From NCBI RefSeq assembly GCF_000143415.4, contig NW_003314323.1:810499-874498 (forward strand): 64,000 nt of DNA, written 5' to 3'. The notes beneath the pieces are model-generated. The model saw only the letters and a program-made list of their open reading frames with translations, made no database searches and was not told where the DNA came from. This DNA comes from Selaginella moellendorffii (Eukaryota > Plantae > Lycopodiophyta). Positions 33 to 58,110 of this stretch are shown here, piece by piece. Made by a program: the position numbers and the translations under genes. The first letter of the stretch is position 1. Each line of letters opens with the position of its first letter.

Positions 33-315
33 GATGGTAGATCCTAGAATAAAATCATTCCTATCTTTCATATTATGGCACATGCTTGATGTGATATTTC
101 TTTCCGTTCTACCAAAAGTTAGTGCATATAATAAATTTGAGTATGTTTTTGAATTCAATGTATATAGACAATTAATATTGTACAACATAGTCCTATATAC
201 TTCATACAGAATTTATTATAACAACATTATTCGATGTTAGATCCTAGAATAAAATCGCCCTATCTTTTCACATAATGGCATAGCACATGTGAGGTGACAT
301 TTCATTATAAAAGTT
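33..315. repeat. ~200-bp-spaced degenerate direct repeat upstream of the transposase, possibly subterminal
   Basis: TAGATCCTAGAATAAAATC..CTATCTTT..ATGGCA..GTGA.ATTT occurs at ~38-100 and again at ~238-303. Confidence 0.6.
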
Positions 316-343
316 CAGAGTTCCAAAACCTAAAGGCAACAAA

Positions 344-3300
344 ATGGAGGGCTTCCTTTTGCATTACCAAGATCACCCACCGCTTTCTATCTCCCAGAGT
401 CTTATTTCAGAAAGTTTTCTTTGCCGACATTTCGATCTTTCTCTCGGTTCTATTTCATTGGAAGCTGTGATTCGCAACAACATTGGTGTAGTTGAACGAT
501 CGGAGTTTCTTCTTTCGGGTGTAGGTGAAGGTGGACAACATTGGGATTTGCAACATTCCAAGTCGAAAGAGATTCGAGTTTTTGGATCTCCAATCAAAGT
601 GCGAGGCTGTGATCCTGCTAAAGTCAATGTGAAGCAAGAGTCGGTCGTCATCATTTCTTCCTCTTCTAGTTCTAGTGGAGATGTTAGTCCAGTGCGAGCC
701 AAGAATTTCCAAACTCCAACTTCACTGATATTCCAAGCTGTTTGCAACGCTTTCCAGTTTTCCCGCCTCTCTATCGATGTGCGTTCCTTTCTGCATAGGC
801 TCGTTAGCGAGCTCCCATCTACATACAATGGCAATATCTTCTTTGAACTACCACCTCTTGTCATCTCAAAACGAANNNNNNNNNNNNNNNNNNNNNNNNN
901 NNNNNNNNNNNNNNNNNNNNNNNNNNNNNNNNNNNNNNNNNNNNNNNNNNNNNNNNNNNNNNNNNNNNNNNNNNNCACACATTTCCAACATTTCGAAGGC
1001 ACAGTGTCCATGGTTCATTGTGGTGGGTATTTGGATTGTGTGAATAAAGCATGCAATCAAGAGCGTGGTAAAAACTCCATATTTTTTGAAGGATCTGCAA
1101 CCAATCCTCCCCTCTGTGACACCATTGGTGTTGGATTCAAGTGTCGGTTTTGCAAGAATGCTCCATTGTGTCGTGCCATCTGCGGGGCCAAGATGTACTA
1201 TTTTCTTCCACGGGATGGAGAGGTTGGTAGAGCTGCAGTACATATTGGCACGCACACACATCCAATGCAGGAAGGGATACAAAGGAGTTCAGTCAACCAT
1301 TTCAAAGATGCAGTGCAGATAGAGACTGTGAGAAACTCATCTGCAACTCCGAAGCATGTTCAGAAGATAGTGCTCAAGGATTTTATCGCAAATACTTTAC
1401 TTGATCCGGACTACAAGAATACTCAACTGGATGAGGCTAGCTTGCAGGAGTTACTACGACATGTGCAACCTGCAACTAGCCTTAGAAGGTATGAAAATAT
1501 TATTACATACTTTTCAATAATATCTCTCTTACATTTTGTTTTATTTAGGATAAAGTCTTGGATGTGTGAATCTCGAGAGGGGAAACTCCAATCAAAAATC
1601 GACTCAATCCTTGAACTAAAACGGACTTGTCCCTATGAGTTTATCCATGGGAGTTTATTTCCAGATCAAGTCGTTAGTGAGCAAGAGCGCCCCTTCGTTT
1701 TCAAAATGTCTACCATGGGCCCTGCCTCTTGTGTGGATCTTGTTTCCCGAATGGATATGTCTGGGTCAAGTGACCTTGCTAATGCATGGGTACATTTTGA
1801 CCATATGGAGCGGGTGGCAGGTTGGACAACCATGGGAGCTCATGTGTATGATCCAAGGTAGTTTTTTTTCTCATTATCTTAAAATGGTTTTAAACATTGC
1901 ACTTTTCACAGGCTACGTTGTAACTTGACAATTGCAACGGTAGAGTTTAAAGTACAAGACCAGATGGCTCAAGAAATATTTTGGAAGTCCCTCTCCGACA
2001 TTGTATTGAAGCGAACTGGTAAGCCTGCCAACTTTCGCGGTTTCATGGCAGATGGGGCTGGGGCTAATTGGAATGGTGTCCGGGCAGTCTTTGGGAATGG
2101 TCTACCCCTAGAAGGTCGTGAGAGGACATGTGAGTTCCATTGGGCTCAGAGCCTAAACCAACACTGCCACCTTATCAAGCCAGATTTCCAATTAGCATTT
2201 AAGGAGTTGTGCAAACAATGGCAAGCTGCACCTTCTGAAGAAGAGCATGAGGCAAAAGCAAACGAGATTCGAATGTGGTGGTGTGAAGATGGCCATACTG
2301 ACGTAAGTTGTCTACCACAACTTGAGTCATGGTTGGGGTGGTGGGAAGTTAGAATGTTCCAATGGGGACATCACTCTTTTCAGGTTGGTTTTTCTTTTTT
2401 TCCTCTCTTTTTATTGCTTTTTAATATCATCTTTTTATAAGGATCAACCACTTGAGGATCTTGCATACACCCCAACTGTGAATCTCTTAGAGAGTAAACA
2501 TTGGAGTTGGCGTTCCTCTGAGGCAGGGAAAGGGAAGATGAGTCTATATGAAGCATGTCTATCAGATTTGATATGCGCTGTAGAGCAGTCTTCAAAAGCC
2601 TTGGCATTTGAGGAAGGAAGATACATGGGAACAGGACCTTCGGTTGAGATGTTACACGATCGGATGAAGAAGAAAGTGACTCCACCAGCACGAACAATGG
2701 CAACTGCAGTGGAGGAAGTGGTCCCCGGCACATCTATGGAGTACACTCCTCGGGCTTCTATTGGTGATATGAAGACCGTCCGCTCAAAGCGTCGATTTTC
2801 TTTTGCTGGTGAAGATGTTGGCACGGATCTTGGAGCAAAAAGCTCTCACAGGCCTGATGTTGAGTATCATTTTGCTCCAAGACATCGCCCCAGAACCGAA
2901 CCACATCAAGTGGCTGATGAAGAAAGTGCATCACAACAGGTTGAAATTGCTTATCGTAGTGTGGAGCCGAAGCAATGGGCAATCCGTCGAGTGCCAGCGA
3001 AATCAAATGTAAGGTGTGTGGGGATGCTTCCAAGGGGCAAGTGTTGAGCTTGGATCCGTGGTGATAAGTCTGCTTCTGTTCCAGCCCCATGTTTCCATGG
3101 GGAACGAAAGCAAGCAGGATTTTCAAGATGGTGTTGGTTATATTGCTACAACTCTGATGTCAACCATACAAAGCGGCTTGAAGACACTATAGTGACTAAA
3201 CCTGATGCAGTACCTAAAGAATGGCCGGTTGCTAATGGGGTTGCGCTCACATCGGATGAGATTGAAAACCTTGAGAAATCTGGTTTCAATCTTGAGAGGA

Positions 3301-3718
3301 GAGTTGGAAATATGAGTGACAAAACCAGGACTATTCCTACAGAGATGCACAGGAGGCCAGCACGAAAAGGTAAGGCAGTTAAATTTATTGGTACCGTCTC
3401 CAAGCAGAAGCAAGGTAAAATAAACTTGGCTCAAACACTTGAGTGTGAGATTCTCTCCACGAAGTACATCACTGCGCTCGCAAAGGAGTACACAGTCAAA
3501 CAGAAGGTGGAGAGTACACAATTGCCATTCAAGACTTTCCTTCTTGCACATGTTCAGACTTTACGAAGCGCGAGGAACATGGGAAGGCATATGCTCCTTG
3601 CAAGCATATGTACTACATCTTCATCAACATCTTGCACCATGATCCTAAAGTGGATATTCATATACACCAAGCAAGCCTTACTATTGCTGAGTTGCAGAAA
3701 ACTTTTGGAGCTAATTAG
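344..3718 (+). pseudogene. Mutator-like (MULE) DDE transposase with N-terminal GCM/WRKY-like zinc finger and C-terminal SWIM; disrupted
   Basis: GT-AG introns at 1489-1548, 1858-1911 and 2384-2441 join the ORFs in frame. Motifs: HCGGYLDC..C...CRFC...C..HIGTHTHP; catalytic-like HFDH, MADG, CEFH and NLLESKH. In-frame TGA at 3045-3047. A 1-nt frameshift near 3498 precedes the SWIM motif CTC...PCKH, which ends at TAG 3716-3718. Confidence 0.75.
876..975. other. assembly gap (100 N)
   Basis: run of N. Confidence 1.
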
Positions 3719-4858
3719 ATTTTCCAGCACTATCGATGTTTATTCTCTATCAATAATATAAACTAATTATACCTTATATAATTAATAAAAATATTTTATT
3801 ATTTCACTTTTCATTTCATATACTTGTAAGGTTCTTTTCGCAATACTACCCATAGTATTTGTGAGTCTCCATTTTTGTCTTTACCTTCTCAAAAAATATT
3901 TCGTGATAGTCTTTCGGGTGTATGATGTTACAATGTATTGTGAGAGCATATGTACCATCACAGTTTTTTTTTTCCTTTCAAATGGTTATATGGCCTTATA
4001 TAGAATCTTAATTCAAATTTAATAATTTAAAAATTCTGATGAACCTGACATTTACTAGCTAGAAAGCACAGAGTACAAATTTAAAGAAGTGACAAGAATA
4101 CTCTTTTTGCAAACATTTTATTTTATATTCTAACAAACGTCTTTATTATTGCATGTAGTAAATATTTAAATTATTAGAACAAGAAGTGTCCTTTAGAACA
4201 TTTTTATCTATATAATATATAGAGAGTTATGAAATTATTAAGTTCGCCATAACTTTAAAATTTTAAAGTTTATAATGTTTGTACTAAATTACAATTGAAA
4301 ATTGAGCTCAACTCGTGAGCTCAACTCTTCAGCTCGTGAGCTCAAGTATGGTCCACGCTCAGTGAATAGAGATGGACAAATGGGGTAACTTGGTGAAGTG
4401 TTCAAGAGCCAGTTTTAGCTCCCCTAGGAGATCAAATGGTTAATGTTCATAATCCAAGTGTGGGTGGCACTATCTACTTGGATACCTGGTATAGTTCATT
4501 GGAACCTCACTCTAACCACATGGCTAGGGCACCTAAAGGCTTAAGGTGGGGAGAGTACCCACAAGGCTCACGTAGGGATGCAATGTTTCAAAATGTCACC
4601 CAAAAGTCTTGGATTGTAAAAAAGAAAAGGAGCAATCCTCTTGTATAGTGACCAAAGATATGGTGTTATAAAAGTCAATGGGACTTAGTGGGCAGGCTTT
4701 TAAGCCCTGACTCAATAGTAGTGTTGGCGAGCATAGTTATGGATAGAAAAGGATTTAGTGGGGATTGAAGAAGGGATATTAAAGAAGGGTGTTCACCATA
4801 TCTTTGAGCATTATAAGATGATGAAGTGTGGTCATGGGATGACCACTCATAAACCAAT

Positions 4859-5909
4859 TGTCGCGAATGTGATTTCGGGTATTGAAAGATACTTGTCGGC
4901 TAGTCCTTACGAACACTCTTTCTTTACTGCCATGACAGCAAAAGGTCGGTATTGCTGAACTTGTTATCAATTCCCACTTGAGCTAGTTGAGAAACTGGTA
5001 AATGACCATGCACTTAAATCGGATAAACATAAGGTAGGAACCCTATGTGTTTCTTGTTGAGCATACTCTGCCTAATTTGAGAAACTCCTATCATTAGTTT
5101 ACACTTGCTAGTGTCAAAAACCCTGGCAATATTGAGCTTGGTCCCTCAATATTGCTAGATGATAGCTTACCGTGTCTGCTAAACACCCTCGCTATCATGC
5201 CCTTTGTGTTAGTCTCATTTCGGTCCCAAATGTTAATTATGGAAAGTGTCTAGATTCGCTCATTTGGCATATCTACGGAATGTAGAGATTAGCCTAACTC
5301 CTGATACTAAGGGAAGCTTGGGGTGAAAGCCCAAAGCGGTTCCTCAAGGGGGGGGGGGGGGGTGTTAGGGGGTTTCAAATGTATAGTTGTATAGTAGGGA
5401 TAGTGGGTAGGTCGGGTATGGCCAACCTAAGGCATAGTTTAGCTCTTATTTGCGTGCTTGTCCTTGTTCTACGTCCGGCTTATGTCTAAGCCCAAGTTCT
5501 ATACTATGCTAGCTAGTGGAGTACCCATGTCCTTGCGTTAGGCCACAGGTATGCCGAAATAGCGCCAAACTCTGTTTGGCTTCGTTTTGCGTGCTAGTCC
5601 TGGCATTGGGATACTAGTTGCTCTAGGACTGTTCTAAGTCGCTCCGGGCTTCTATCCCTTTGCTCCTTATGCTGCATGCTAGGGAGTTGCTCCGCGGTCT
5701 AGTTCCATCACTCTTTGGCTCCATACTTGGGAGTTTGGCACCGTTCCTTTGTTCAATGGCCCAAGGCCTTGAACCTCGGGTTCCACACCACTGTCCTTTG
5801 GACACGTGGTATATGACACATAGCACATGGAGGTTTAGGTTTCGCTTCATGGTGTGATCCTATGGTAAATCACCATAGGATAAAGGGTAAAAAACCCACG
5901 TGCGCTACA
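4859..5909 (+). repeat. 5' LTR
   Basis: TGTCGCGAAT...GCGCTACA, followed by the PBS. Confidence 0.9.
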
Positions 5910-8164
5910 TTTGGTATCAGAGGATATGTCTTAGTGAGTACTATTCAATGAGATTGGGCAACTAGTCTCGTTGCATACGCAGAGATGAAAACAATGATAT
6001 GAGTGGGTACACGTTTGGGTGCAATGACTTCGTAATCATTCCTTGGGTATGGATTTGGTTATCTTGTTGTACCTTATGATGTGAGCTTGCTCTTGGGTTT
6101 ATAAGATGGATTTGAGGTATACCATTTTGCACGAGTTTGCACTTGGGCTCGTGAGTTAGACACATTAGCAACTCAAAGTCACACTTTGGGTTGGCAAGAT
6201 TAATAATAGCCTATCGATGGTTCCATGAGTTGTTCTTTGTACCATGGGAAAAAGTAAACCTTCAATGGGTTTGCTATGAGTGGCAAATATGCTGGTCCGT
6301 AGCTGTTTAGCACGGCACTAGTGGATCTTTCCTAGGCATGATTATGAGTGGAGAATCAAGATTGTAGGGATTAATATATTAGTTCGAGTAGTCATTGCTG
6401 TGCTCTCTCATAAACTTTTCTTGGATTGGACTAAAGGCAGTGCAAATGCAAGCTTGAGGTTTAGTCAAAGATGAGACTGAAAAGAGAGTTGTTAGGGACG
6501 AAGGATCAAACACATAAATCATTTTCTCTTCTTGGAGAAATAATTTGCAACGAGGTGTTGACTCATTGCTCATGTTCACATCATACAATCAAGAGTCCCT
6601 ACCTTGATGCATGTTAGTTATGATGGTCTTACAAATGGCGAGTTATGAGATGGATAGTGGTGAAGTGCTAATCCATTTCTAGGCTTGCTATTGAAGACTT
6701 GGGTTGCAATGCTCAATTCTTTTCCGGGGAACCTTGCTATTGCTCCTTGAGTAACTTGGTGTTGGATTAGTTTTGAGTTTGGTCAAAAAGAGAATGGCGT
6801 GAGCTTGTTCATGTTGTGAATTAAAATTAGTGGTGTTGGGTGTTGTAAAGCTCTATTGGTGGAGTGTGGCATTTATGTTGCATTTTGTCGAATTGAGTTA
6901 GCACTTGATAGTCACATAAACCTTTGAAGTAATGATATGGGTGTTGCTCGTAGTGTTGCTCAATTGATGATCAAGTCATTGTGATACTTATATTATATCC
7001 ATGTGATAGTGAGCAATATGTTTATGAAGTTTTTTGATTAAACGATAATCATCCCCAAATTGGTTGATGGTGAAACTAGTTTACTTGCACATAATAGCAT
7101 TGTAGTAACTTTGACTGGATTCTCGATGGTGATCCATTATGCTAAGTTTAAGTTGGTTCTTTAGTTCTTTGAGTTTGCCCATAAGGTGTTGATAAGGGTT
7201 ATAGCATTCACTTGCTATAGCTTGTTGGTTTATCCATTAACACTTGGAGTAGATTGTTGGATGGAGAAGATGTGTAGTTAAGGCATTGACATCACTAGCA
7301 CTTGTGTTAGTGGAAGTGGCATTGTTGTTCGAGTGATGAGGAATTTTCCTTAGAGTTTGATTTTCCATGTCATTTTTTTTTGTTAATGGTTTGGCTTCAC
7401 ATTGGATCTTAAAGGTTGTTGAAAAAGAGTGTTAGTGCAATATGGATATCTGAAGATATAGTTTTCGTGATCAAGCCTTGGATGTTCCATTTGCATTTTG
7501 CGGATATCGGTGTTGGATATCAGAAAAATGGGCAAAGATGTTCGAGGCTTAAGTATACTATGGGTTATGAGAATTGGTGTTGAAGTGAACCTATGTGAAG
7601 TTGTACGTAGGAGGAAGTTGGTTAAGTCTTAAAAGTTTGTATTCCTGAACTAAGAGTCATTCTTTCTCTGGGATGGAAAAAATTTCCACAAATTTTCTTA
7701 TATTTTTCTAATGGCTGATCTATTAGTCACTTTGTTCGAAAACCATTCCGTTTTCATAAGCCAATACAAACTAGTGAAGGGGTTGGAGTTGACTTAGGTT
7801 AGCTTAGACCTTAGTAGGTAGTTTGTATGATGCAACCCGAAAGGGATACTAACTTTTAGGGTTAAGACAATTGAGTTGGATAGAATTTGGAGTTGGTGTA
7901 GAAGAGTGGTTATTGCACTTTTCTAAGAAAGGTGATCCTTGTGCCTTTTTTTTATAGCATTGTGCTTGGTGGCAGGTTGCACTTTGCATTTCATTAGACT
8001 CTATGAGAGTAGTGAGCTCTCACTGATCTTGACTTAGTCTTGGTAGCCTTGTGCCTTGGCTAAGGATAGTGATGTCCAAGTTAATTGTTTAAGGTTGAGA
8101 TGTTAGTACCCGTACTAAAGCCTTATTTATGAGGAGGTTGTGTGCTGATATGAGTTCTTCTCAT

Positions 8165-14181: not shown

Positions 14182-14831
14182 TGTAGCGCATGTGATCATG
14201 AGATGAGATTTAGATATATTATCGCCGTGGATCCTTGGAACCTTGGGGGATAAATAGGGATAAAATAACCACTAAGGGCTCTCTCATCAAATAATTGCTC
14301 TTTTTCCAGTTGGCTTAAGGGGAGAGAGATAAGGTGTGCTACATGTGGTATCGGAGCAAATAGCACAGATTCGATTTCCATTGATTAGTGGCTACTTAAA
14401 AATGTAATATACCCTTGAGCAAGGTATATTCCTACCCCTAAATTTGAAATCATACATATTGGGCATCCATGCGTATGTCCTTCCTCTTGTGTGGAGTATC
14501 CACGGACGAAGGTATCCACCGTGGGACTACAGTATAGGTGGATGACTAGTTGCCTCACATGGAATAGCTAGTCTACACAATAGAAGGATTGGTAAATTCA
14601 ATGCGGAAATGGAGGTGTTGGTTCCCCTTGGCTCAATAAAGACATTGACATCTTTCAAGGGGGGGTGAGTGTAACGCATGTGACCATGGGATGAAATTTA
14701 GATATACTGTCACCGTAAATCCTTGGAACCTTGGGGGATAAATGGGGATAAAATAGCCACTAAGGGCTTTCTCATCAAGTAATTGCCCTTTTTTCAGTTG
14801 GCTTAAAGGGAAAGAGATAAGATGCACTACA
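14182..14831 (+). mobile_element. TRIM (terminal-repeat retrotransposon in miniature), copy 1
   Basis: 162-bp LTRs 14182-14343 and 14670-14831; PBS TGGTATCGGAGC at 14346; G-rich PPT before 14670; TSD ATTAT on both sides; no coding capacity. Confidence 0.93.
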
Positions 14832-16537
14832 ATTATGGTTTGGAATCTTGTAATGTAAGGATTTCCTTCAATTGGATATATATTTCATTTCTTGTGGTTG
14901 GAGTTTTATTGTGAAGGATGGGACTGAAGAATTGAGTCTTGATAACCAAATACTTGTAGTGTCATGTGATCTATTACTTGTGCCTTTGCAGTCAAAATGC
15001 CAAGTAGAGTACACATTTGAACAAACTAATCTTTAACTAGGATGGGTTTTATTACCATTTGCATTTGACCTTGTCATCCATTTGAAACTTGAAGCATAAA
15101 CTTTACTTTATTGAGATTATATAACTCTTCAAAGTTGATCACTATAGAATTAAAAGGCCTAGAATGTTTTAGTGTCTTTGTATATCTAGAAACATATCAC
15201 ACTTGGTACCTTGGAAATTCCTCTATACATATTCTCTTTTTGCGTTCCAGATAGCAATAGCATATGACCTTTCTATTTAGTATACAATGTAAAGCCTAAT
15301 ATGACTCATGAAGTTCCTCCTTGACAATGTTGGTTATGACATTTTATTGTTATGGTTGAAATTCAAAATGTTTTGCAATAATAAATCTTGCTTTTGGGAT
15401 GTTGACAATGGTGAATTTTGGCTCATACATGTTATCCATGCTTATTCCTACCCACTTGATATACATCATCTTTTGGTTTCCATTCAAACCACTCTAATCT
15501 GACATGATTATGATTGTTTGAGGAATTATATTGAAGTTTGGAGCATTAGCTGCACGTTTCTTTGTGCTTCCTAGTGTACCACTCCTATTATAAAACTTCT
15601 GCAAACTTGGACTTGAATTTAATGTTTTTACCTCTAAAAACAATTTGTAATTCATGCATAATTATTAGTTCCTTTGACATATCTTGAGAGCACTGGTTGT
15701 ACCAATTTTTTTATAGCACTCATGTATTCCACCTCAACTTGAGACAAAGGAAACAGATGGGAACAGTTCAAGACAAGATTTATCTATCTTACCCAAGATG
15801 GGAATAGTCAAAGACAAGATATATCCAGGTCTCTTGTGTTGTTTGCATGGAGTTTTTTCATTCCGCCAGACGATTTACACACGCATTTGTGCAAACTTTG
15901 GAGTGGCAATGGTTTTTGCAACTATAAAACCTCCAGCTTTGGGCCTGAATCAGGCCTGAATTCATCCAGATAAGTGTTTTTTAAATACTTCTAAGCAAAA
16001 TTCTTTTGAGATAGATATGGCTTGACAGCGTGAAGGAAATATTTAACAAAAAACAGTGCTGGCAAAACCTGAGTGCCATTTGTTTGCAGACTGATATCCA
16101 TTCCAGTTGAAGAATCTCAGTGCTTCAACCTAGTACACAAAGCTACAAGTCAGCCCAAAGAGAGTACCTTCCCGAAAAGCTTATTGACCTCCCATCTGAA
16201 CAAGGAAGTCCTGCGAACTCGGAAACAGCGTTAAGCCGTTGCTTGCTCTGCTGCCTTCACCTCCAAGTCCGCAACAGCGTTAAGCCGTTTCGCTCCTCAC
16301 CATCTGACTCCAAGTACAACTCGGCCCCTTGCCAGGAAATCAGTTTTCTGGCAATTCTGGTTAGCCAGCCCAGGATCCGCTGCGCAGCAGTGAGTGCATC
16401 CTGAACTGGCACGCAAGAAGAAGATAAGCTTCTTATACTCGGGGATCCCCCCAGATCGCCCTGAGCAAGCAGCTCTAGAGTCTTTTTCTGTTTTTGTAAG
16501 TTTTCGTTGTTTAATCACAAACTTAACTTTTTCTAGT

Positions 16538-17431
16538 CTACACAAAGCGCTTGAACGCCTCCAAGCACTGTGCAATATGAAAGCAGTGGCTCTTGAAAAG
16601 CATGGTATCAGAAACGGTTGCAGGTAGCATGGGAAGCGCGTACTTTCGCACAGCAGTGTCGAAGCTCGGTTGCTCTCCCTGCCTCACGGCCTCAGCCAAG
16701 GCTTTGGTCAAGGGGATCAAGTAGAAGGTTGGACAGGTCCCTGAAATCGAAAGTGTTATCCCTCAAAAAACAGATAAAGCGCTCGAATACGTACCTAACA
16801 TAACTATACCAGGAATTATCTGTTGATCAGGATATTCGCCCATCGACAGCCTTTCGTAAAGCCTCGAATTCTCCTGATAAGCGGCAATTGCCTCGGCAAT
16901 CAGCTGGGCTTCTGGATGGTGACCTTTCAAGTTCCCATCGTAATTTTTGTCTTCCTGAACCAGCATTTTCACTGCAGTGTCCAGCCGCTCCACAACGACG
17001 TCAGGAATTGCTTGCTTTTTGCCCCTCGACATGAAAAGATCGAGAATGGTTCTGCTACGTACTGCTGTGTCATCGTTGTCGTACTGAAAAAGCTCCAGAA
17101 GAGTCAGGGACATGTCATCCACTGCTGATTCTTCATGCTGGTGTGTTCTGGTCACTGCGAAGACACGTTTAACCAGGGATTTCACATACCGAGATCTTAT
17201 GGATGAAAGTTTCAGCTTTCCGAAGGCGTACTCTTGCAGATCCAAACTCACGAGCTCCGCGACATCAGGATTGCTGAATTCAACCGGCATGTTTACCCCA
17301 AAGAAATCTCTGAAGGAACTCTCCTTCGTGACCTTAATGTTGAAAGACCGCAGGACCCCATCATCCCAATCGGAACCAGATTGTTTTGCAATCGGCCTCA
17401 CTAGCCCTGACCTATCACCTGGAGGCGCCAT
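16538..17431 (-). CDS. 279-aa PD-(D/E)xK / restriction-endonuclease-like protein resembling a fungal family; exons 17431-16795 and 16740-16538
   Basis: A 54-nt GTACGT...TTTCAG intron (16794-16741) joins two ORFs into ...IPGIVMLGTCPTFYLIPLT...CLEAFKRFV*. Motifs: SGSDW, ESAVDD, IPDV, LVQEDK and PEAQLIAEAIAA. No internal stops. Confidence 0.8.
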
Positions 17432-21352: not shown

Positions 21353-22989
21353 AGGGAAAATCTTGGAGACAAAAGGATGAACTTTAGCAGATCGTAGCAA
21401 CAAGGCTACTCTGCCACTTATAAAACCCCATCCTTTATTTTAAGTCGTCTGCAAAGGATTTATCTCCCAAGTCATTCAGTGTGTAGCGCACCTTATTTCT
21501 TTCCCCTTAAGCCAACTGGAAAAGGGGCAATTGCTTGATGAGAGAGCCTTTAGTGGCTATTTTATCCCCATTTATCCCCCAAGATTCCAAGAATTTATGG
21601 TGACAATATATCCAAATTTCATCTCATGATCACATGCGCTACACTCACCCCCCCCCCCCCCCCCTTCAAAGAAATCAATGTCCTCATTGATTATTGACAA
21701 ACAACCCCTTTTGAGCCAAGGGGATTTAGCACTTGCATTTCCGCACCGAATCTACTAATCCTTCCACTATGTATTCTAGCTATTCCATGTGAAGCAACTA
21801 ATCATCCACCCATACCGTAGTCCCACGGTGAATACTTTCATCTATGGATACTCCATACAAGAGGAAAAACGTATGCCTAATATGTATAATTTCAAATTTA
21901 GGGGTAGGAATATACCTTGCTCAAGGGTTTATTATATTTTTAAGTAGCCATTAATCAATGGGAATTGAACTTGTGCTATTTGCTCCGATACCACATATAG
22001 TGCACTTTATCTCTCTCCCATTAAGCCAACTAAAAAAGGGGTAATTGCTTGATGAGAGAGCCCTTAATGGCTATTTTATCCCCATTTATCCCCCAAGGTT
22101 CTAAGAATCCATGGTGACAGTATATCCAAATTTCATCCCATGATCACATGTGCTACACAGTGTATGTTTATAGGTTCAACACAAATAGCAAACTTAGTTG
22201 TAAGTACATGTTTTCAATGCACAAGTCCCCCAGGGTGCACATGCCACCCCTATCCAAGATCAAGTAACAACATGGGAGGTAGATGGCACCATATCTAGTA
22301 TGGATTTTGACTTAGAGTCATTCAGTTATAATCCCATGCACAGTAGCTTTGCACCACTAGCTTTTCAACCAAGTGCAATGACCAATTGTGCGAATCAATA
22401 GTTCCTCTCGTACTAAGTTCAATTACTATTGGGACACAAGGCATTAGTAGGGTATAACTAACCTATCTCACAATTCTCTAAACCCAGCTCATGTTCCCTA
22501 TTGGTGGGTGAACAATCCAACACTTGGTAAATTTTGCTTCACAATGACATCAAAGGATCAAAAAGCAACATCGCTATGAACACTTAGTTGCCACAAGCCA
22601 ATTATCCCTATAGTAACTTTTTTGACACATCTAGCTTCAAACTTAGAAATACTAAAGGATTGATAGTTTATACTTTCACAGTTTGTATCTAAATTGAAGA
22701 TCAAAATCAAATGAGTTTTTACCCTTTTGTTCCACATAAGATTCCTATTCTCATTAAGCTCATCTTAGGACACCTATATTATCTTTTAACTGATGTGCCG
22801 CCCCAGCCAAACTCCCCATCTAAAAATGTCATCTGCCTAGATCAGCCAATAAGTTGCTTGCCTTAAAACTAGAAGAAGGGGCAAAGCCCAACTTCCACCT
22901 TACAAAGTAAATAAAATAACGTTAAAAGTAGTGGTATTTCACTTGTGACTTATATTACACCTCTCAAGTCATTTGACAAACTCAGACTA
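21353..22989 (-). pseudogene. degenerate fragment of the 3' ~1 kb of 25S/26S LSU rRNA, interrupted by TRIM copy 2
   Basis: Reverse complement of conserved LSU blocks: AAGTCGTCTGCAAAGGATT, CCCTATTGGTGGGTGAACAATCCAACACTTGG, GATGTGCCGCCCCAGCCAAACTCCCC and AATAACGTTAAAAGTAGTGGTATTTCAC; many C>T/G>A changes. Confidence 0.92.
21482..22157 (-). mobile_element. TRIM copy 2 (same family as 14182-14831)
   Basis: LTRs 21482-21643 and 21996-22157; PBS (GCTCCGATACCA on +) near 21982; poly-C PPT; TSD CAGTG on both sides. Confidence 0.93.
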
Positions 22990-29530: not shown

Positions 29531-29629
29531 TCATTTTACACACTATCATACACTAGGTATTACATCAATTGTTGAAACTATGACAATAATGTCAAGTCCA
29601 TTTTTAAAGAAGCATTTTGAATTGAATCA

Positions 29630-30020
29630 GGAAAAAGACAACGATGGTTGTAGTGAGTGAAACTTTGTAAGGTGCACCCACTAAACCCTAAACCCTAAAC
29701 CTAGGGTTAAATAGCTGAGTCTAAAAATGGATGACGTAGTGTGCGAACCACTAAATCCTAAACCCTAAACCTAGGGTTAAACAGTTGAGTCTGGAAAAGG
29801 ATGACGGTAGTTGTAGTGTGGAACACTTTGCAAGGTGCAGCCACTAAACCCTAAACCCTAAACCTAGATTATTTAGACAAAAATAGTTCGATAATTGTAG
29901 TGTGCGATACTTTGTAATGTGCACCTACTAAGCCCTAAACCCTAAACCTAGGCTGTTCAGACAGAGACAAATGATTCTGGAAAAAGATGACGATAATTGT
30001 AGTGTGTGACATTTTGTACT
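29630..30020. repeat. minisatellite of ~70-95-bp units, each containing plant telomere motifs (CTAAACCCTAAACCCTAAACCTAG)
   Basis: Four telomere-motif blocks near 29681, 29751, 29844 and 29928, separated by conserved GATGACG/TGTAGTGTG spacers. Confidence 0.8.
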
Positions 30021-45143: not shown

Positions 45144-46509
45144 TTCTCCGTGAAACCCTAGCCCCAAAACCCTAATCCCTTGTCTGCAAAGATTAGTGAG
45201 TTTGCGAGAAATATACTTCTTCCAATGCCACGGCAATGCTTGATAAATGTATGATTCTATTGACACGCTTGTGCAAAGGAATTAACATTAAAATCTACTA
45301 AAATCAGCTCTTCTAAAGGAGTATTTTGGATCAAAGGAGTGATGTAATATCTCTAGTAAGTATTTTGTAGTCTCCTGATTTCTAATCCTGAAGGTAATAT
45401 CTTCTTCACATCAATTACGGTTTAATATGAACCATAATATAATCTCCTAGGAATACTCTCAATCTCTCTTGGCAAAATAGAGCAAAATAACAAAACTGAA
45501 ACATATACAAATCTATTGTATGGTGTCAAAGACTTGGTATGTATTAGCTATAAGCTATGTTATTAGTGTTGAAATCAATTAATCATTTCTACTACTTGCT
45601 CTTGCATATTGAAAGTTCTGATTTGCTTAGAATACGTGATCTCCATTCATGAAGTGAATTAGTCAATTTTAGTTAAAGCTGGATCAAAGTTCAGAAGGAA
45701 AGAGGAAAAAAGCATTTAGATAAAAGATAATAATCAATCAAACTTCAAGTTTTTAGAGGAGAAAATCAAAAATCATTTGCTAATGCAATAATAAAAGGCA
45801 TTTAAATTAAAGGAATATTTCTGTCTTTTATTTATTGTAGGAACCAAGACAAAAATGACTAGAGGAGCATGTTGGTTATGCATCTAAATTTAGAGTAATA
45901 GTAGGGCTCTAAACCATTGTTGTATTTCATAAGATGGGCTGGAATGAATAATTTTATGTGTGTTGCATGAAATAATACTTGATTTGTTTAATAGTAGTGT
46001 TTTCCTGATTGGTATTATTTACTGATTCAACCGATCAATCAGAAACCTATAATTATAAACATGTGTGAGGGCCAAGTGTACGGTTACAATGTTGTATACT
46101 AATATTAGCGTAGTGGGATTTTGGTAGCTATCGGATTGGTTTCAATCCGGACCACTCGCTTCTGTATATAAGCTAGGGTTTTTGGGCTAATTGATATGCA
46201 CATTTTCTGTATTCCCTTTCCATATTCCAAACACTCACATTGGTGGAGATGAGGGGCACCTTTGATTGTCCCTGAGGAGTGCTTGAATTTGGAATTTTGG
46301 TTTAGATCTAGCTTTTACATTGTCTAGATCTAGCTTTTTCCATTTCCTTTCTTTTTTTTCCCTTTCAGGATTTTGGTTTAGATCTAGCTTTTTGCATTGT
46401 CTAGATCTCCCATTTCCTTCTCGTTTTTTGTCCTTTATTTCCTTTTGCTCTTTCTTCGTCCATCTTCATAGTAGATCAACAATCTCCTCCTTTGACTCTA
46501 GAGCAGTAG

Positions 46510-47400
46510 TTGGTCCAATTGCTTGATGCTATGTGCTTGCAATTGAACAATCAAACTCAATTGATGGCAGCATTCACGGCACGTGGTCCAACTCCTCCTG
46601 CTCTTGGTGCCAATCCTCGCGTTCGGCGGGAGATCTTTCGTGGGAATCCTGGGGATGATGTGTACCATTGGTTCGATCACTTCACGGTGATTGCCACATA
46701 TCATTCTTGGGATGATGCTCGATGTTTGCGTGAGTTTCCCACGTGTCTCCAAGGGATGGCGTTGCAGTGGTACAATGGATTGAGTGCGGCCACTCGTGGG
46801 GATTGGAGTCTTCTTCCGGACGTCTTCAAACGCACCTTCGGACATGCTGACGATTGTGATGATGCCTTCCAACAATTGCATCGTCTTCGCCAAGGGCCAT
46901 CTGAGTCAGTGATGCAATTTGGCGTTCGTTTCCGAAGTCTTTTGCTTCGTGCGGAGCCCAATATGTCGGAGCGGATCAAGTTAGGAATGTTGTGGCCAGC
47001 ACTTTGTCAAGATCTTGTCGGCCTTGTGCATGCACTTGCTCTTGCCACCCTTGACGATGCTCTTCGCTTGGCACAACGTTATGAAACATCGCCTCTTCCA
47101 CTTCTCGCTGCACGTCCTTCCGCTCCACTTCCTATGAGTGATGGTCCTGTTCCAATGGAGGTTGATGCTGCTGCTACTCGAGTCCAAGGACAAGGGCGAG
47201 GACATGGTCGTGGCCGTGATGTTCGTTGCTGGGCGTGTGATGAAGTTAGTCATACTTATCGGCGTTGTCGGCGCTTTCCAGATTGGCGACCTCCATTTCC
47301 TGGGTGGAGACCTTGGCGTCAACAACGTCCCGTTGGTGCTATTGCAGTGGAAGGTTTGGACACCGAGGTGCATCCGGGAAACGAAGAGTCGCACGAGTAA
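46510..47400 (+). CDS. gag: retrotransposon Gag
   Basis: Open ORF with retrotransposon gag-like core, PVPMEVD motif and zinc knuckle CWACDEVSHTYRRC; exact start uncertain. Confidence 0.85.
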   Translation: MVQLLDAMCLQLNNQTQLMAAFTARGPTPPALGANPRVRREIFRGNPGDDVYHWFDHFTVIATYHSWDDARCLREFPTCLQGMALQWYNGLSAATRGDWSLLPDVFKRTFGHADDCDDAFQQLHRLRQGPSESVMQFGVRFRSLLLRAEPNMSERIKLGMLWPALCQDLVGLVHALALATLDDALRLAQRYETSPLPLLAARPSAPLPMSDGPVPMEVDAAATRVQGQGRGHGRGRDVRCWACDEVSHTYRRCRRFPDWRPPFPGWRPWRQQRPVGAIAVEGLDTEVHPGNEESHE

Positions 47401-47440
47401 TGGAGGGACCTTGCGCGAATAAGTTAGTGACCCCTCCATT
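47376..47440 (+). promoter_or_regulatory. -1 programmed ribosomal frameshift signal (slippery heptamer plus pseudoknot)
   Basis: G GGA AAC in gag phase at 47376-47382; 6-nt spacer; stem 47389-47397/47410-47418; loop AATGGAGGG pairs with CCCTCCATT (47432-47440). Confidence 0.75.
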
Positions 47441-50400
47441 TTTCTTTCGGGAGTATCATCAAAGGGTTCACTCGGCACCAGTTCATCCAATGTTTACTTT
47501 CCAAGCTCGTTTTTATAACAAAAGGTCTCCTATTATTCTCTCCGTGTTGGTTGATACAGGTTTGAGTTTATCTTCTATTGCTCGACCTGTTGCCACACGT
47601 TGTTGTCTACACTTGCGTCGTGCGGCGGATCCAGTTTTCATTCTTTATGGTAACGGCCGTACACATGCATGTGCACGAGATGAGGCGGACCTGGTTGTGC
47701 GTGTGGGTGATTTCGAGCTTGAGTTGCAGTCGTTGCGGGTGGTGCCGAGTTAAGCTTTTGACCTCATTCTTGGTATGGATTGGTTGCAGCACAATCATGC
47801 CAAGTGTGACTTTGAGGCTTCTCCCCCTTATCTCATACTTCCTTATGTTTCATTCATTCCTCTCACTTTTGTACCTCTTCGTCCCTCTACTTCTACCTCT
47901 GCTTCCATTACTTTTGTTCCCCCACTATTTCCTCCTATGTTTCCATCTTGTTCTGCTCTTCCCTTTTCCGATCCCTCCAATGATCTTTGTGTTGCAGTTG
48001 TTGACCGGCTCATGAAGGAGTATTTTGATCTCTTTGATTTTGACCTATCGTCTGGGGCCAAGATTGCCACACGTCATCCGATTCCAACTGGGGATGCTCG
48101 TCCAATCAAGGTTCCTGCTCATCGTCGGTCACCCAAGGAGATCAAGATTTTACGTGCAAATATCAAGGAGATGTTGGAGAAGGGTGTTATTCGGAAGTCG
48201 TGGAGTCCTTGGGCATGTGAACCTAGTCTTGTGACGAAGCCTGATGGGAGTATTCGTTTCTGCATCGACTATCGTCCGTTAAATGAAGTGACGATCCCGG
48301 ATGTGTACCTTCGTCCTCACACTGCTGATCTCTTGGATCGTCTAGGGCGAAGTCGTTGGTTCACCAAGCTAGATCTTGCTTCTGGGTACTAGCAAGTACC
48401 GATGGCTGCAGAAGATATTCCTAAGACTGCTTTTCGTACACCGTTTGGTTTGTACGAGTTCTTGGTGATGCCGTTTGGTTTGAACAACGCTCCAGCAACT
48501 TTCCAACGGATGATGGACGAGGTTCTTTGTGATATGCCAGAGGTGACTGCCGATTTCATTGATGATGTCTTGATTCACTCAGAGGGGACGTGGGAGGAGC
48601 ACGTTCGTGATGTTTGTAAAGTGTTGGATCGGCTACGCGATGTTGGTTTAAAGCTGAAGCGGTCGAAGTGCGTGTTTGGGTCCAAGGATACAACTTATCT
48701 TGGGTACTATATTTCTTGTGAGGGTTTGCAAGTTGATCATGACAAACTTGTGGTTGTTCTAAAGTTCCCTACTCCGAAATGTGTGAATGATGTGCAGCAC
48801 TTCTTAGGCAAGGTGCAATATCTCGGTCGTTTTGTGAATCATCTTTCTGATCGCACTGCACCATTGCGAGCGTTGCTGAAGTCATCAACATCATCTTTCA
48901 TCTGGTCTCCGGATTGTGAGCGGGCGTTCAGGGATCTCAAAGAGCTATTGACGACTCCTCCGGTTTTGGCATATCCTGACTACACTCGACTTTTTATTTT
49001 GCGTGTGGATGCTTCTGACATTGGTCTTGAAGGTGTGTTGATGCAAGAGAGCTCGAGTGTGCCTGGTCAGCGCCATCCTATTGCATATATAAGTTGTACA
49101 TTACAACCAGCGGAGATGAACTACTCCACGACGGAGAAGGAGTGTTTAGCAGCAGTTTGGGGTTTCGAGAAACTTCATGCATATCTACATGGTTCTCGGA
49201 CGTTACTTGAAGGTGACCATGCTGCTGTAACTTCATTATTGAAGCGGAAGAACCTAGTTGGTCGTACTGCTCGGTGGGCTTTGAAGCTTCAGATATATGA
49301 TTTTGAGGTTGTTCATCGCCCAGGGAGTTCTATGGCTGATGCTGATGCCCTTTCTCGAGCTCCTCTTCCTTCTTCACTCACTTCTCATGTTTCTGACGAG
49401 CCTGTTGTTCCAGCATCTATGGATTTTCTAGACGAGGATTCTGTGCCGTTGGCGGTTGCTGTCCTTAACGTTCAGTGTCCACAAGGCGCAAAGCAGGATC
49501 TACCTTCTCTTGATGATGTTCGCGAGGCTCAAAAGATTGAGCCGTGGATTCAAAGGCTTCGAGATGGGTTTGAGAATCCTGCATCACTTGCTGATGACTT
49601 GCCTTTTCGGCATTTACATTCTCAATATCGCCTTGAAGGTGGCCTTCTTTATTTTGTGGGGACGGATCCTAAGGATCATTTACGGCTGGTGGTGCCTTCT
49701 GTCTTTATTCCGTGGTTTCTCCATGCCTACCATGATTCTCTTGTTCTAGGTGGGCATATGGGACAACGTCGTGTAACCAAGAAGCTGCATAGGTCTTTTT
49801 ATTGGCCGGAGATGCGACGTGATGTTATCCGGTATGTGCGTAGCTGCGTTTGGTGCCAAGCTCGTAATACTCCCCCTCGTGCTGCGGAAGGACGGTTGGA
49901 GTCAATTGCGGTTTCCCGTCCGTTTGAGTTGGTGGCGTTTGATCTTATGGGACCTTTTCCATGGTTAACTGCTGGCAATGAGTATGTTATTATTGCTTCT
50001 GACTACTTGACTCATTGGGTGGAAGTTGGTGCTCTTGCTAGTGCCTCTGCAACTGCTGTTGGCTAATTTCTCCTCAATCGAGTGGTGTTCCAGCATTCTT
50101 GTCTAGAGCGGATTCTTTTAGATAATGGTCCCGCATTTATGGCTGAGGTATTTCATGTTTTGATGTCTCGGTTGGGGATACGCCACACTTTCACGAGTGC
50201 TTATCATCCACAATCAGACAGTCTGGTGGAGCGGCTTGTTCGGACATTCAAAGGGATGATTGCGAAGTATGTGAACTTTCAGCATTCGAATTGGGATGGT
50301 TATTTGCCGTCTCTTCGGTATGCATATGTCATAGGGGTGCAAAGTTCTGTTGGTGCTTCACCATATAAACTCCTATATGGTCATGATCCAATATTACCAA

Positions 50401-50825
50401 CGGAGCTGGGTTTACCTTCGCGATTGCCGCGAGCTGCCGATGCTAGGTCGTGGGATCAGTATTTGACGAGCATTCTTCCACTTGTCCGAGCAGAGTCTGC
50501 CGAACACTTAGGCCACGTACAAGTAGGACAACAATGGCGCTACAACTCTCATCATCGTCCACCTACGGAGTACAAAGTGGATGACTTGGTGTTAGTCCGT
50601 TTTCCCCATCTTACGGTACGTGGTTTATCTAAGAGACTTCTTGCGCAGTGGAAAGGACCGTATCGAGTGTTGCGGCAAGTTGGACCACAAGTTTATAAGG
50701 TTCAGCATGATGTTTAGCAGGCCGATCCTCTAGAGATTGTGCATGTGCAGCGGCTGAAACACTTCGTACAAAGGGATCAGGAGGAGTTAATACCACCTAC
50801 AGATGCACCGATGCCTCCTCCTGAT
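47382..50825 (+). pseudogene. pol: pol (protease, RT, RNase H, integrase) in the -1 frame, with four premature stops
   Basis: LVDTG, FIDD, DAS, H..H..CVWC, D-D-E and WKGPY. Stops at 47751, 48390, 50064 and 50715 all lie in one frame. Confidence 0.92.
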
Positions 50826-51819
50826 TGTAAGCGACTAAATTTTCCATTTTACTTTAGTCACTTAACCACGCCTCCGACCACTTGGAGGAGTCTCATTCAC
50901 AACCTCCATAAGTCCAACTCAGGACTTGGGGCTTGCTAGCCCCGAGAATGGCATCCATGCCACTCAACCTTAGCACTTGGTCCAAGTGCTCCACGTGTCC
51001 GATCCCATGATCGACACCCCAAGGTACCACCGACATATCGGCCCGTTACGCTAAGGCCAATTACCTTGGTCACACTGGGGGTCCAACGCCACCTGCATTC
51101 CCATCCCGTCTCTCAAAGACTAGGTCATTCGTCCATGAGGGATCATCCCAGATCCACTCCTTAACATCCTTAGGATGCCTACAGACATGGGGAATAGCCT
51201 TCCCCAATATCTCTGTTCCGGTCCCCACCAAGTCCCTTTTTGTCCTTGGCTGTGTTCGCCAACACTGCCACTAGATCAAGGCCCACCGGCCCGACCACTA
51301 AGTCCCACTATCCTCTAGGACTTCCTCATTGTGTGACTGTGTCCTTGGTCACCCTACCAGAGGGCTATCCCTCTTCCTTCCCATAGTCTGGGACTTTGGG
51401 ACACCATTTCAGAACACCGTGGCCCTACGCGGGCCTCATGGGTACTCTCCCCGCCTTCCGCCTTTAGATGCTCTAGCCATGGGCTTAGAGCGAGGTTCCG
51501 TTGAGCCACGACAGGTATCCAAGTAGGTAGTGCCACCCACACTTGGACTGGGAGCATTGGCCAGTCGATCTCCCGGGGGAACTAGAGCCGGCTCTTGAAC
51601 ACTTCACCAAGTTACCCCACTTGTCGGTCCGTGTTCACCCTAGTCTTGGACTTCCCAGTGGGCAACTCATCACTCAACACTGGGTCCGGCCTTCCTAGGC
51701 CAAACTGGCCTTTCCTGGCCAAACTAGCTCCACTGCAGTCCTCCCCCTACTATACTTTTGGAGCTCACCAAACCCCCCAGGGTTTGGGAGACGAACGCTT
51801 TGGGCTTTCACCCTCTCAG

Positions 51820-52445
51820 ACTCGAACTCGGACTCGGACTCGGACTCGGACTCGGACTCGGACTCGGACTCGGACTCGGACTCGGACTCGGCCTCGGCCT
51901 CGGCCTCGGTCCCGATCTTCGTCTCGGTCTCGGTCTCGGTCTCGGTCCCGGTCTCGGTCTCGACTTCGGACTCCATCTCGGGTCCATCTTGGACTCCATC
52001 TCGGACTCCATCTCGGGTCCATCTCGGACTCCATCTCGGGTCCATCTCGGGTCCATCTCGGACTCCATCTCGGACTCCATTTTGGGTCCATCTCGGGTCC
52101 ACCTCGGACTCCATCTCGGACTCCATCTCGGGTCCATCTCGGACTCCATCTCGGACTCCATCTCGGGTCCATCTCGGGTCCAGCTCGGACTCCATCTCGG
52201 ACTCCATTTCGGGTCCATCTCGGGTCCACCTCGGACTCCATCTCGGACTCCATCTCGGACTCCATCTCGGGTCCATCTCAGACTCCATCTCGGGTCCATC
52301 TCGGACTCCATCTCGGACTCCATCTCGGACTCCATCTCGGGTCCATCTCGGACTCCATCTCGGGTCCATCTCGGACTCCATCTCGGACTCCAACTCGGGT
52401 CCATCTCGGACTCCACTTCGGACTCCAACTCAAGTCCATCTCGGA
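51820..52445. repeat. minisatellite in the 3' LTR: (GGACTC)n, then 12-bp CTCGGACTCCAT/CTCGGGTCCAT units
   Basis: direct observation. Confidence 0.95.
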
Positions 52446-55400
52446 CACTTCCACGTGTCATGTATTGGTCCTTTTGGGTCCTTTTTTGGAGCCTCGCTTT
52501 TTGCTCGCTTCGTGCTCGTTCCTCGAGCACTTCGTTAGGAGTTCCACTCCCGCTCTTGACTTTTCAAGTCGGAGCTTTTGGTCCAAATGTGTTACGTTCG
52601 TTTGGCTCTTGCTTCAGCCACTACCACGTGGCACCCTTCCGGCTCCACTTTGGGGCCTAGGGATTTTGTGTCTCACAACTCCACCACCCATAGACGAAGT
52701 TCGATGTCCTCATCGAACGGTGAACCATTTTATAAAGTAACACCCGCATGTGTTACCATTTCCATCCTTGGCGCGTAGCCAATATTTGTCAATTGTTTGA
52801 CATTAAAGGCTCACCATGCCTTTTGCATATTCCTCGATGGTTTGACACCAAAGGCTCACCATGCCTTGCCTATCCTCCAAGGAGGGTAGTCTCTCCAACT
52901 TAGAGACTGATTGGACCACATATAGTGGTTCTCTCCTTTTATTGGTTTAGTTCTTGCTAAACCTCTTAGAGACCCTTCTTTAAGTCAATCCCACTACTCC
53001 TTCTTGAGTAGTCTCAATTTCCATTTATTGAACATTTGCACCTTGGAACTTTCACTCTTTTGACTTTTGGAAGTCAATTTCCTAGGTGTCTCCAACACCT
53101 TGCATTGCACAGATTGTGCAATTCCATTTCCCATCCTAGGAAGTTCATTACTTGAGGGCACTATCATCCTCTCTTCTATTTTGTGCCACCTTGGGCACTA
53201 AGTTCCATTTATCATACTTTGTGCTAGGGCTGTCCATGGCCCTATCATTTGGCTACCTTACCGCTCCCTTCCTTGGAGCTTCCATTTTCGCCAAATCGGA
53301 GCAATTCGGAATCCATCCTTGGAAACACACTTCCTTTCCCGCAATTTGTTAGCGTCCAACACATTAGTGTTCCTCGCCTAACTTTGTCACTTGGATTCCT
53401 TCCAAGGGATTCCACGGCCCTATCTTGGCCACTCATCTTTTGCTCCTATCCGTTGATTATTGCACCAAGCAACATCGAATCTCTACCTCCCTCCTTGAGG
53501 TATTCTTTTGATTCCATAGCAAAAGCTCTGCTTTGCCAAGACTAGGGTGTTCACCCCTAGTAAGTCTCTTTTAGCATCTTCTGTTGTGGGCTTTATCCAC
53601 GGCCTAAATTTGTGACCCTCCCATGGGTCTCTTTAGAGACTACTTTCCTTGGACACACTATGCCATCGCAATGACATAACTCATTTCCCTAAGGTGCTTT
53701 TCCCACTTGGTCACCTTGACCAAGCCACACCATCATCAATAGTTCAAATCAACATTTTGAACTAGGAACCTTATTCCTTAACCCAAACAAGAACCTTGTC
53801 CTTATTTAGCCACAAGATCACCTAGTGATCTCACCTCGGCACCTTAACAGGTTTGCCAATAGGTACTAGGTCTTCCAGACCTTTAACTTGTTAACTACAA
53901 CCCCGGGGGCATCCCCCACACTTGGCGGTGCGCCCAAGCCAGCCCTTCCGGCCAAGGGTCCATAGCAACTGAGATTAGGTGTCCCCATCTCACTCACCAC
54001 GTCCTTGGTGCCACTTGCACCAAAGCGTTCAAGTTAGATATGCCGAGCTTTCACACTAAGCAATCTAACCGTGCATCACGACTCCGAGGCATCCCTCGCT
54101 TGGCGGTGTGCCCAAACCAGTCTCCCCACTGAGAGTCCATGACCACCGAAATATGAGTGTCCTCATATTCCAAACCATCACCACGCCCTAGTGATTTGGG
54201 ACTCGAACCCAAGCACTAGAGGGTCGGGACTCGAACCCAACCTCCGTATATGCATCTACGGACGGCATCACACAAGATGCCTGGCGTGACTCCCCACGCC
54301 GGTGCACCAACTTATTTTTAAAGCGCGCTACAGATCATAGCTTAGGAACCTAGTTCCCCCACACTGCCAAGTCCTCTCACTTGACATATCTATGATCATG
54401 CATGGACTCCTCCATGCTTGGCCCCATGGGCCACCCTTTTTGAAGTTAGCACCTTCAACTAGGGTATTTGTTCCCCCCAACTTGCCAATCTCACTTAGCA
54501 AGTCATCCGGCCACCGTAACATGGTTCATGCATAAGCGTGATAGTCCTTAACCATCAACTTTCGTTCAAAGCCTTCTCTTTGAACACTCGGGAACTACTT
54601 CCCTAACCTTGATAGCCTTGCCTCATGGCAAGTTTCAAGACCACGCTTCTGCTGCGCCACTCTGATTTCGCGCGTTCCTTGAACCATTTACGCTTGGCCT
54701 CTCTAGGTACTAAGCTACCTAGAATCCTCTTTGGGAACCTTGAAGGAACTCTGTCCCTCAGCTTGCTAAGGCCCCCCTTTTTGCAAGCTTTCCAATTACC
54801 ATATAGTCTAACATGGACAATTCCATATTTTAGACTCTCCATGGCATCACGGTTGCTAGCGGCAACACCCTCGAGCCCCCACTTGATTCTCCACTCCCAG
54901 CTGGCATAACCAACCTTGGTTATGCCCTTCGATTCCTATGGTTTGGTTCTATCCCCTTACTTCTTGCTTTTGGCTTCACACCTTTCCTTCGGTCATTCTC
55001 CTCCAGACCAGGAGGATAGCTTTGCACTTTCTATCATACCTTAGCAAGTATTCTTAGGGATGAACCTACCCGATAGCCTAGGGAGTGGTTCCTCAATCTT
55101 GGGCATGCTCACCTTATAATCCCACACATCGGGATTAACGTTGCTGCTTATGGGCCTTTACATGCCCATCACTAGCCTTGCCAAAATTCCATTTTTAGCT
55201 TTGTCCAATTCGGGTAGACAGTCTTCTCTTGTCTCCACAACCTTGGACATTTGGATAGCACCTACTATCCATTATTCGCCAGGGACTTAGTCCCTTGGGC
55301 CTTATCTACTGCCCTCGCGACATCAAACACCACCTCCTAGTGTTCTAGAGTGTTCGGGTGTCCCAATGACGGCTTCCTTGACAATGAGTATTTCCTTTTA

Positions 55401-57609: not shown

Positions 57610-58110
57610 GACTCGAACTCGGACTCGGACTCGGACTCGGACTCGGACTCGGGCTCGGGCTCGGTCTCGGTCCCGATCTTCATCTCGGTCTCGGTCTCGG
57701 TCCCGGTCTCGGTCTCGACTTCGGACTCCATCTCGGGTCCATCTCAGACTCCATCTCGGACTTCATCTCGGACTCCATCTTGGACTCCATCTCGGACTCC
57801 ATCTCGGGTCCATCTCGGACTCCATCTCGGACTCCATCTCGGGTCCATCTCGGGTCCATCTCGGACTCCATCTCGGACTCCATTTCGGGTCCATCTCGGG
57901 TCCACCTCGGACTCCATCTCGGACTCCATCTCGGGTCCATCTCGGACTCCATCTCGGGTCCATCTCGGACTCCATCTCGGACTCCATCTCGGACTCCAAC
58001 TCGGGTCCATCTCGGACTCCATCTCGGGTCCATCTCGGACTCCATCTCGGACTCCAACTCGGGTCCATCTCGGACTCCACTTCGGACTCCAACTCGAGTC
58101 CATCTCGGAC
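57610..58110. repeat. the same minisatellite in the 5' LTR, shorter array
   Basis: direct observation. Confidence 0.95.

Follow-up and report, generated by a model that had tools for sequence, protein, structure and literature searches.

The 279-residue protein encoded at 16538-17431 of the window (the whole 64,000-nucleotide stretch of Selaginella moellendorffii DNA that was analysed) is predicted to be a nuclease of the PD-(D/E)xK restriction-endonuclease fold, and its gene very probably reached the Selaginella lineage by horizontal transfer. The reading that we prefer, and that we hold to have about an even chance, is an old transfer from a giant virus, or a related element, that resides in soil fungi or protists, followed by domestication of the gene product as an intracellular conflict nuclease, its activity being predicted.

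Gene structure, transcripts and flanking DNA

The gene runs on the minus strand from an ATG at 17431 to a TAG at 16538 in two exons, and the spliced frame of 279 aa has no internal stop. The first-pass annotation had read two open reading frames as one stop-free gene joined by a 54-nt intron, and this model is borne out both by splicing and by the annotated protein: the spliced product is identical in every letter to S. moellendorffii SELMODRAFT_445933 (EFJ14584, annotated protein P0003). The gene is shown as two open reading frames because the in-frame intron contains a TGA. Its features are as follows.

16795-17431 (-), exon 1: 637 nt, codons 1-212 and the first base of Gly213; contains the predicted active site
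17131-17129 (-), E101: exon 1, predicted active-site residue
17002-17000 (-), D144: exon 1, predicted active-site residue
16954-16952 (-), E160: exon 1, predicted active-site residue
16948-16946 (-), K162: exon 1, predicted active-site residue
16906-16904 (-), Q176: exon 1, predicted active-site residue
16894-16892 (-), E180: exon 1, predicted active-site residue
16741-16794 (-), intron: 54 nt, GT-AG spliceosomal (GTACGT...TTTCAG), phase 1, in frame, with one TGA
16538-16740 (-), exon 2: 203 nt, the remainder of Gly213 to the TAG stop
16489-16537 (-), 3' untranslated region: spanned by a likely-RNA contig (run X11) that derives from a paralogue

Contigs from sequencing runs were compared with the window, on the upstream side up to 17540; the run type 'RNA' is a computed guess, no run being recorded as RNA. 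At the 16794-16741 junction an exact 54-nt skip with CT..AC ends was present in 3/3 likely-RNA runs, from three studies, and in 0/1 DNA run, where the contig spans the intron. The 18-residue insert that corresponds to the intron is missing from all 18 of the close homologues compared (alignment A1), and read-through of the TGA, or its decoding as selenocysteine, was ruled out because the stop sits in a spliced intron that the homologues lack. Most of the likely-RNA contigs match the paralogue SELMODRAFT_413451, which is recognised by a 3-nt deletion and a start of its own, and just two, both short and of low depth, fit the window copy without a difference: a spliced 119-nt contig (X9, depth 2.4) and a 122-nt contig (X5). 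Thus, expression of the window copy itself, as opposed to that of the paralogue, is suggested but not proven. Against the loose end of run X5, positions 17413-17431 suggest that the start of the paralogue differs by a short inversion around the ATG.

Three features flank the gene.

15497-16493 (-), downstream flank: also inside the gene model of the near-copy SELMODRAFT_406833, with 61-92% amino-acid matches
14182-14831 (+), TRIM retroelement 1: two 162-nt LTRs (TG...CA), primer-site-like TGGTATC, purine tract, target duplication ATTAT
21482-22157 (-), TRIM retroelement 2: same family in opposite orientation, two LTRs, primer-site-like sequence, its own target duplication CAGTG

Because the downstream flank lies within the model of the near-copy, the window copy was either duplicated together with its flank or belongs to the other haplotype. 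The two TRIMs are about 88% alike, lie in opposite orientation and retain intact LTRs; since each is complete with its own 5-bp target duplication, they are independent insertions. A transposon with terminal inverted repeats around the gene was therefore ruled out, the inverted arms being the two TRIMs with different duplications (ATTAT versus CAGTG), and the TRIM at 14182-14831 has no part in the mobility of the gene. A repeat search of the window found no terminal repeats close to the gene other than these arms, and the earlier proposal of a mobile-element endonuclease at this locus falls with the recognition of two independent TRIMs. The locus also does not fit an endogenous giant-virus region (a viral gene cluster, intronless and silent), the gene being intron-bearing and spliced. 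A family profile search found no second copy of the gene within the window.

The CpG observed/expected ratio is 0.79 over the gene versus 0.15-0.43 in the repeat-rich flanks. The first-pass annotation had called all neighbouring elements decayed, which is apt for the immediate flanks with their low CpG ratio but not for the TRIMs, which keep their LTRs and target duplications, nor for the host genes B3, SIP1 and trihelix, which lie ~17-25 kb from the gene. Ty3 elements also occur farther along. One, at 46064-58593 (LTR pair 46064/58418), apparently holds a younger nested element; within this region, long repeats at ~50824-52536 and 56609-58200 are nearly the same (98-99%) and contain many tandem units of 11-12 nt. 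Elsewhere in the window, 311-3758 (+) has long open reading frames with no Pfam match and a FMADGAGANWNGVR motif, which we take to resemble MULE-type transposases of early land plants, and 29622-30018 consists of short tandem units containing telomere-like TAAACCC repeats.

Predicted fold and active site

An AlphaFold2 model built from a 34-row alignment (pLDDT 91.2, pTM 0.89) has a mixed β-sheet core with flanking helices, its elements being helices 101-114 and 173-194 and strands 145-149, 154-160 and 203-212. In VIA-align, the restriction enzymes matched include DrdV (Z 9.1, 137 residues, rmsd 3.0), BpuSI (Z 9.0), TT1808 (Z 7.6) and HsdR, and rows 3-49 are restriction-fold nucleases almost throughout. 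The top two rows are human mitoribosomal chains (Z 12.8 and 12.4 over 213-218 residues, rmsd 4.6-8.8, 8% identity), which, from chain names and entry conventions, we take to be mL37 and mL65. Foldseek agrees with the restriction fold at weaker scores, and PD-(D/E)XK proteins dominate the viral-library matches. The restriction-endonuclease fold proposed from the motifs is thus what the model and both structural searches return. Mitoribosomal proteins of the mL37 and mL65 type are called repurposed endonucleases in PMC8998825. Because the best structural matches are non-cutting proteins of this kind, the fold alone does not show activity.

PD-(D/E)xK enzymes bind Mg2+ and hydrolyse phosphodiester bonds. 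The motifs on which the first reading had rested, PD...QEDK followed by a helix, are present as PD144, QEDK159-162 and PEAQLIAEAIAA173-184, the last within a modelled helix. Conservation was counted over 277 near-full-length distinct proteins of 230-430 aa, shorter and longer rows being excluded. D144 is kept in 246/273 relatives, E160 in 243/273 and K162 in 248/273, with all three together in 211/277 rows; Q176 (259/277), E180 (223/277) and E101 (253/275) are likewise conserved. In the model, the acidic D144 precedes core strand 2 and E160/K162 lie at the end of strand 3, which would be the positions expected for the superfamily. Fold and residue positions together predict a PD-(D/E)xK restriction-endonuclease fold for the 279-aa protein, and we consider it probable that the protein is an active metal-dependent nuclease. 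Pfam (no match above the cut-off), PHROGs and PADLOC gave no family for it, and a PDB sequence search gave no match at E 10.

Family range, phylogeny and origin

Clustered at 50% identity, the matches of the family profile number 1425 at an E cut-off of 0.001 and 705 at one of 1e-10. Look-alikes in the atlas are unnamed clusters, Basidiomycota being the most frequent, and the named members come from Agaricomycetes, Mucoromycota (including arbuscular mycorrhizal fungi), Zoopagomycota, chytrids and S. moellendorffii. No other plant appears among the named matches, many matches carrying no name, in keeping with the earlier remark that the family is not associated with seed plants. Its description as a fungal family is right in that the family is largely fungal and unnamed; the host here is a lycophyte, however, and a grouping of the protein with the mushroom-type sequences suggested by its motif string is rejected (AU p=2e-73). 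Members are stand-alone proteins: 139 of 140 new representatives have ≤430 aa, and a search for longer forms, which is weak evidence, found four unrelated fusions with no common partner. A scan of bacterial and archaeal genomes with one pattern, also a weak test, gave 66 pattern matches and no relatives, and a second viral scan with the nearest clade gave none in 26. A literature search of main texts found no paper naming the identifiers of the gene and no description of the family, which large HGT tables or Zhang et al. 2016 may list.

S. moellendorffii has ten annotated family proteins on seven scaffolds, some in tandem (copy number and synteny being based on annotated proteins), and these likely form one clade. 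The assembly contains two haplotypes, and some of the ten copies may be alleles. Among the nine proteins examined, PD...ExK is kept in four (445933, 413451, 406833 and 418717), ExK is lost in 406237 and 403783, and both D and ExK are lost in 429820, 429821 and 444057, so that 5/9 are degenerate.

A quick tree of 72 rows agrees with a careful tree of 58, for which 26 rows (near-duplicates, fragments and unstable ones) were removed and 12 were added. A branch with support 94/91 (not starred) separates the eight Selaginella rows from all others. It lies within a starred group of 25 rows (95/99), whose remaining members are 16 unnamed environmental rows and the chytrid Clydaea, a fungus and the only named organism in the group besides Selaginella. 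The Selaginella proteins are 42-52% identical to the intronless environmental genes of this group. A neighbouring group holds the giant-virus loci L001 and L004 with mycorrhizal copies, and the Agaricomycete copies are set off by a long branch (100/100). AU tests under LG+G4, with four long rows removed, rejected an Agaricomycete (mushroom) donor (p=2.4e-73) and an arbuscular mycorrhizal donor (p=0.0005); the grouping of Selaginella with Clydaea (support 76) was neither shown nor rejected. Tree position and AU tests thus bear out the earlier suggestion of horizontal transfer, which we regard as highly probable from these sequence comparisons. Because the trees are unrooted, the direction of transfer rests on the absence of the gene from other named plants and on the intron.

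Thirteen relative loci were fetched, and the gene is uninterrupted in eleven (L001-L011) and broken in two. Viral or mobile hallmark neighbours occur at 5/13. The closest fetched relative, L002 (52% identity), adjoins a protein-primed B polymerase; this polymerase and a 403-aa open reading frame without a family occupy L002:30-1238 and 3226-5988. The polymerase has no close relative in the viral collection, so the element stays unclassified. L001 (41%) shares its contig with genes for Rpb1, MutS-HNH, dUTPase and a GH18 chitinase, L004 (39%) lies amid a capping enzyme, Rpb5 and two helicases, and L006 and L009 (35-36%) adjoin divergent Rpb1/Rpb2-like genes, with PolB also at L009. MutS-HNH together with such a gene set (Rpb1, dUTPase and others) marks giant viruses. 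For L003 (50%), L005, L007, L008 and L010-L013 the neighbours give no element class. Within the starred group, context is available for 2/16 unnamed rows (L002 and L003), neither with a giant-virus core gene. The contexts are biased towards viruses, since the collections are without eukaryotic genomes and the scan favours intronless genes. On balance we think it likely that a virus or mobile element was the carrier.

Several fetched contigs carry a second, more distant superfamily member. L006:7-8164 and L009:50-9694 are syntenic, sharing a divergent Rpb2-like gene (~820 aa), an Rpb1-like gene (~600 aa) and four unknown genes, and possibly represent an unclassified large DNA virus. L005, L007 and L008 are gene-dense intronless islands with several family copies, of which L007 has four to five and which form tandem arrays there and in L008, next to APH-like kinases, a lipase, and DUF6914 or WD40/SesA genes. 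Besides the GH18 chitinase, the giant-virus-like contig L001/L015 encodes a truncated globin and several small proteins of secreted appearance, and this content suggests a chitin-walled host.

The four Selaginella subfamilies are mutually 41-51% identical, and the GC3 of the gene (0.55) lies between that of five relatives (0.17-0.47) and that of three host open reading frames (0.69-0.80; approximate values, from stop-to-stop frames). This divergence and the intermediate GC3 point to an old acquisition, and the recent origin that the first-pass annotation had considered is unlikely given four diverged subfamilies. The intron was likely acquired after the transfer, because the relatives L001-L011 are uninterrupted. 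Compared with the paralogue transcript, the gene shows 8 synonymous and 14 non-synonymous differences (pN/pS 0.51, p=0.10); compared with DNA-run variants, it shows 6 of each (pN/pS 0.29, p=0.03). Purifying selection between near-copies is weakly shown by these counts.

The alternative with most in its favour, though in our judgement unlikely, is a direct transfer from the chromosome of a chytrid-like or other early-diverging fungus, with viruses merely co-carrying the family. The overwhelmingly fungal membership speaks for it, as do the named early-diverging fungi throughout the wider subfamily and the presence of Clydaea vesicula in the starred group; the quick tree also puts Selaginella, Clydaea and P0025 together on one side of a branch (support 76). 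Against this, Clydaea is 39% identical whereas the unnamed intronless group reaches 42-52%, and the AU tests rejected the Agaricomycete and mycorrhizal donors. Giant viruses that infect zoosporic fungi and insert into their genomes are described in PMC13533422; the copy in the chytrid could therefore be of viral origin too, and a fungal route is difficult to tell from a viral one. A term search of that paper found no mention of Clydaea, nucleases or Selaginella.

That the gene is instead a selfish or neutral passenger, either a mobile-element endonuclease or a segmental-duplication copy without benefit to the plant, would accord with the spread of ten annotated copies over seven scaffolds, partly in tandem, with the weak pN/pS signal, with the transposon-rich flanks and with the tandem arrays in L007 and L008. 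We consider it distinctly improbable, because terminal repeats or a target duplication of the gene's own were not found, none of 149 open reading frames of the fetched loci has a match elsewhere in the window, and the gene has gained and splices an intron and escapes the CpG loss of its flanks. Vertical descent from an ancient eukaryotic gene akin to the mitoribosomal pseudo-endonucleases, with loss from the other plants, would explain why human mitoribosome chains are the best fold matches. It is very improbable, however, given their 8% identity and rmsd of 4.6-8.8, the lack of a PDB sequence match and of any other named plant, and a 50% identity to environmental genes that fits poorly with descent from the last eukaryotic ancestor. 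The gene does look foreign, yet contamination or misassembly of fungal or viral DNA is scarcely credible: it sits on a 1.16-Mb scaffold with plant genes and retroelements, the DNA run covers the gene and both flanks in 30/30 bins at similar depth, splicing is seen in three studies, and paralogues lie on six other scaffolds.

Proposed role and comparison with known systems

Under the preferred reading, in which the nuclease of a giant virus or of a related DNA element was domesticated, a single transfer into the Selaginella lineage would have been followed by intron gain and a drift of codon GC towards that of the host, and duplication would have produced four subfamilies, two of which lost catalytic residues. 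In the intact copies the active site, made up of D144, E160 and K162 together with E101 and the Q176-x3-E180 helix, would hold Mg2+ and cleave a phosphodiester bond by hydrolysis, the substrate likely being DNA. Viruses might use the protein as a multi-copy accessory nuclease that degrades host or rival DNA, and Selaginella might use it against invading DNA or as a cell-death effector. The N-terminus is without a hydrophobic stretch (best 10-residue hydropathy 0.64); with no evident export signal, the protein would act inside the plant's own cells. We propose a defence or cell-death role tentatively. The degenerate paralogues could be non-cutting binders, or dampeners or regulators. The fullest version, in which a plant-captured giant-virus nuclease acquired an intron and expanded into active nucleases and dead restraining paralogues that form a DNA-cutting defence or cell-death system, is rather improbable.

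If the preferred reading is true, a spliced, multi-copy and catalytically intact gene with giant-virus relatives would indicate domestication and not a fossil. The family is large, has no Pfam model and is common to fungi, large DNA viruses and one lycophyte, and a demonstration of cleavage would give the whole family its first function.

Restriction-endonuclease toxin domains of Crinkler/RHS-type (CR) effectors are reviewed in PMC5289972. According to that review, they resemble the Selaginella family in being eukaryotic conflict-type domains of this fold found in fungi and in a non-pathogenic land plant, with a predicted nucleic-acid target. The Crinkler/RHS architecture raised by the first-pass annotation was not recovered: the Crinkler header (ubiquitin-like LxLFLAK or helical) is absent, the conserved domain begins at ~residue 7, and the protein and its relatives stand alone. 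Unlike the CR effectors, with which it was compared by architecture, the Selaginella family is without an N-terminal header or an NTPase or kinase partner.

In Maumus et al. 2014 (PMC4083422), NCLDV-like genes are reported in S. moellendorffii and Physcomitrella patens. Those of Selaginella are similar to the present case in host and in being isolated genes with giant-virus relatives and no viral genes nearby, and for one of them, EFJ10148, a few fungi and a single virus were also reported to have relatives. By accession, EFJ10148 and EFJ26844 are not among the ten family proteins. The viral regions of P. patens are silent and methylated in that account, whereas the Selaginella gene is intron-bearing, spliced and diversified.

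The type IIG/IIL and type I enzymes (DrdV, BpuSI, HsdR) and DUF820-type proteins share the core fold (Z 6-9 over 116-147 residues) and the order of PD...ExK followed by a Q-bearing helix, but are only 6-14% identical, and the Selaginella protein is without their methyltransferase or motor domain. The mitoribosomal proteins mL37 and mL65 give the best whole-length structural match; they are non-cutting rRNA binders, whereas the window protein, at 8% identity, keeps the catalytic residues.
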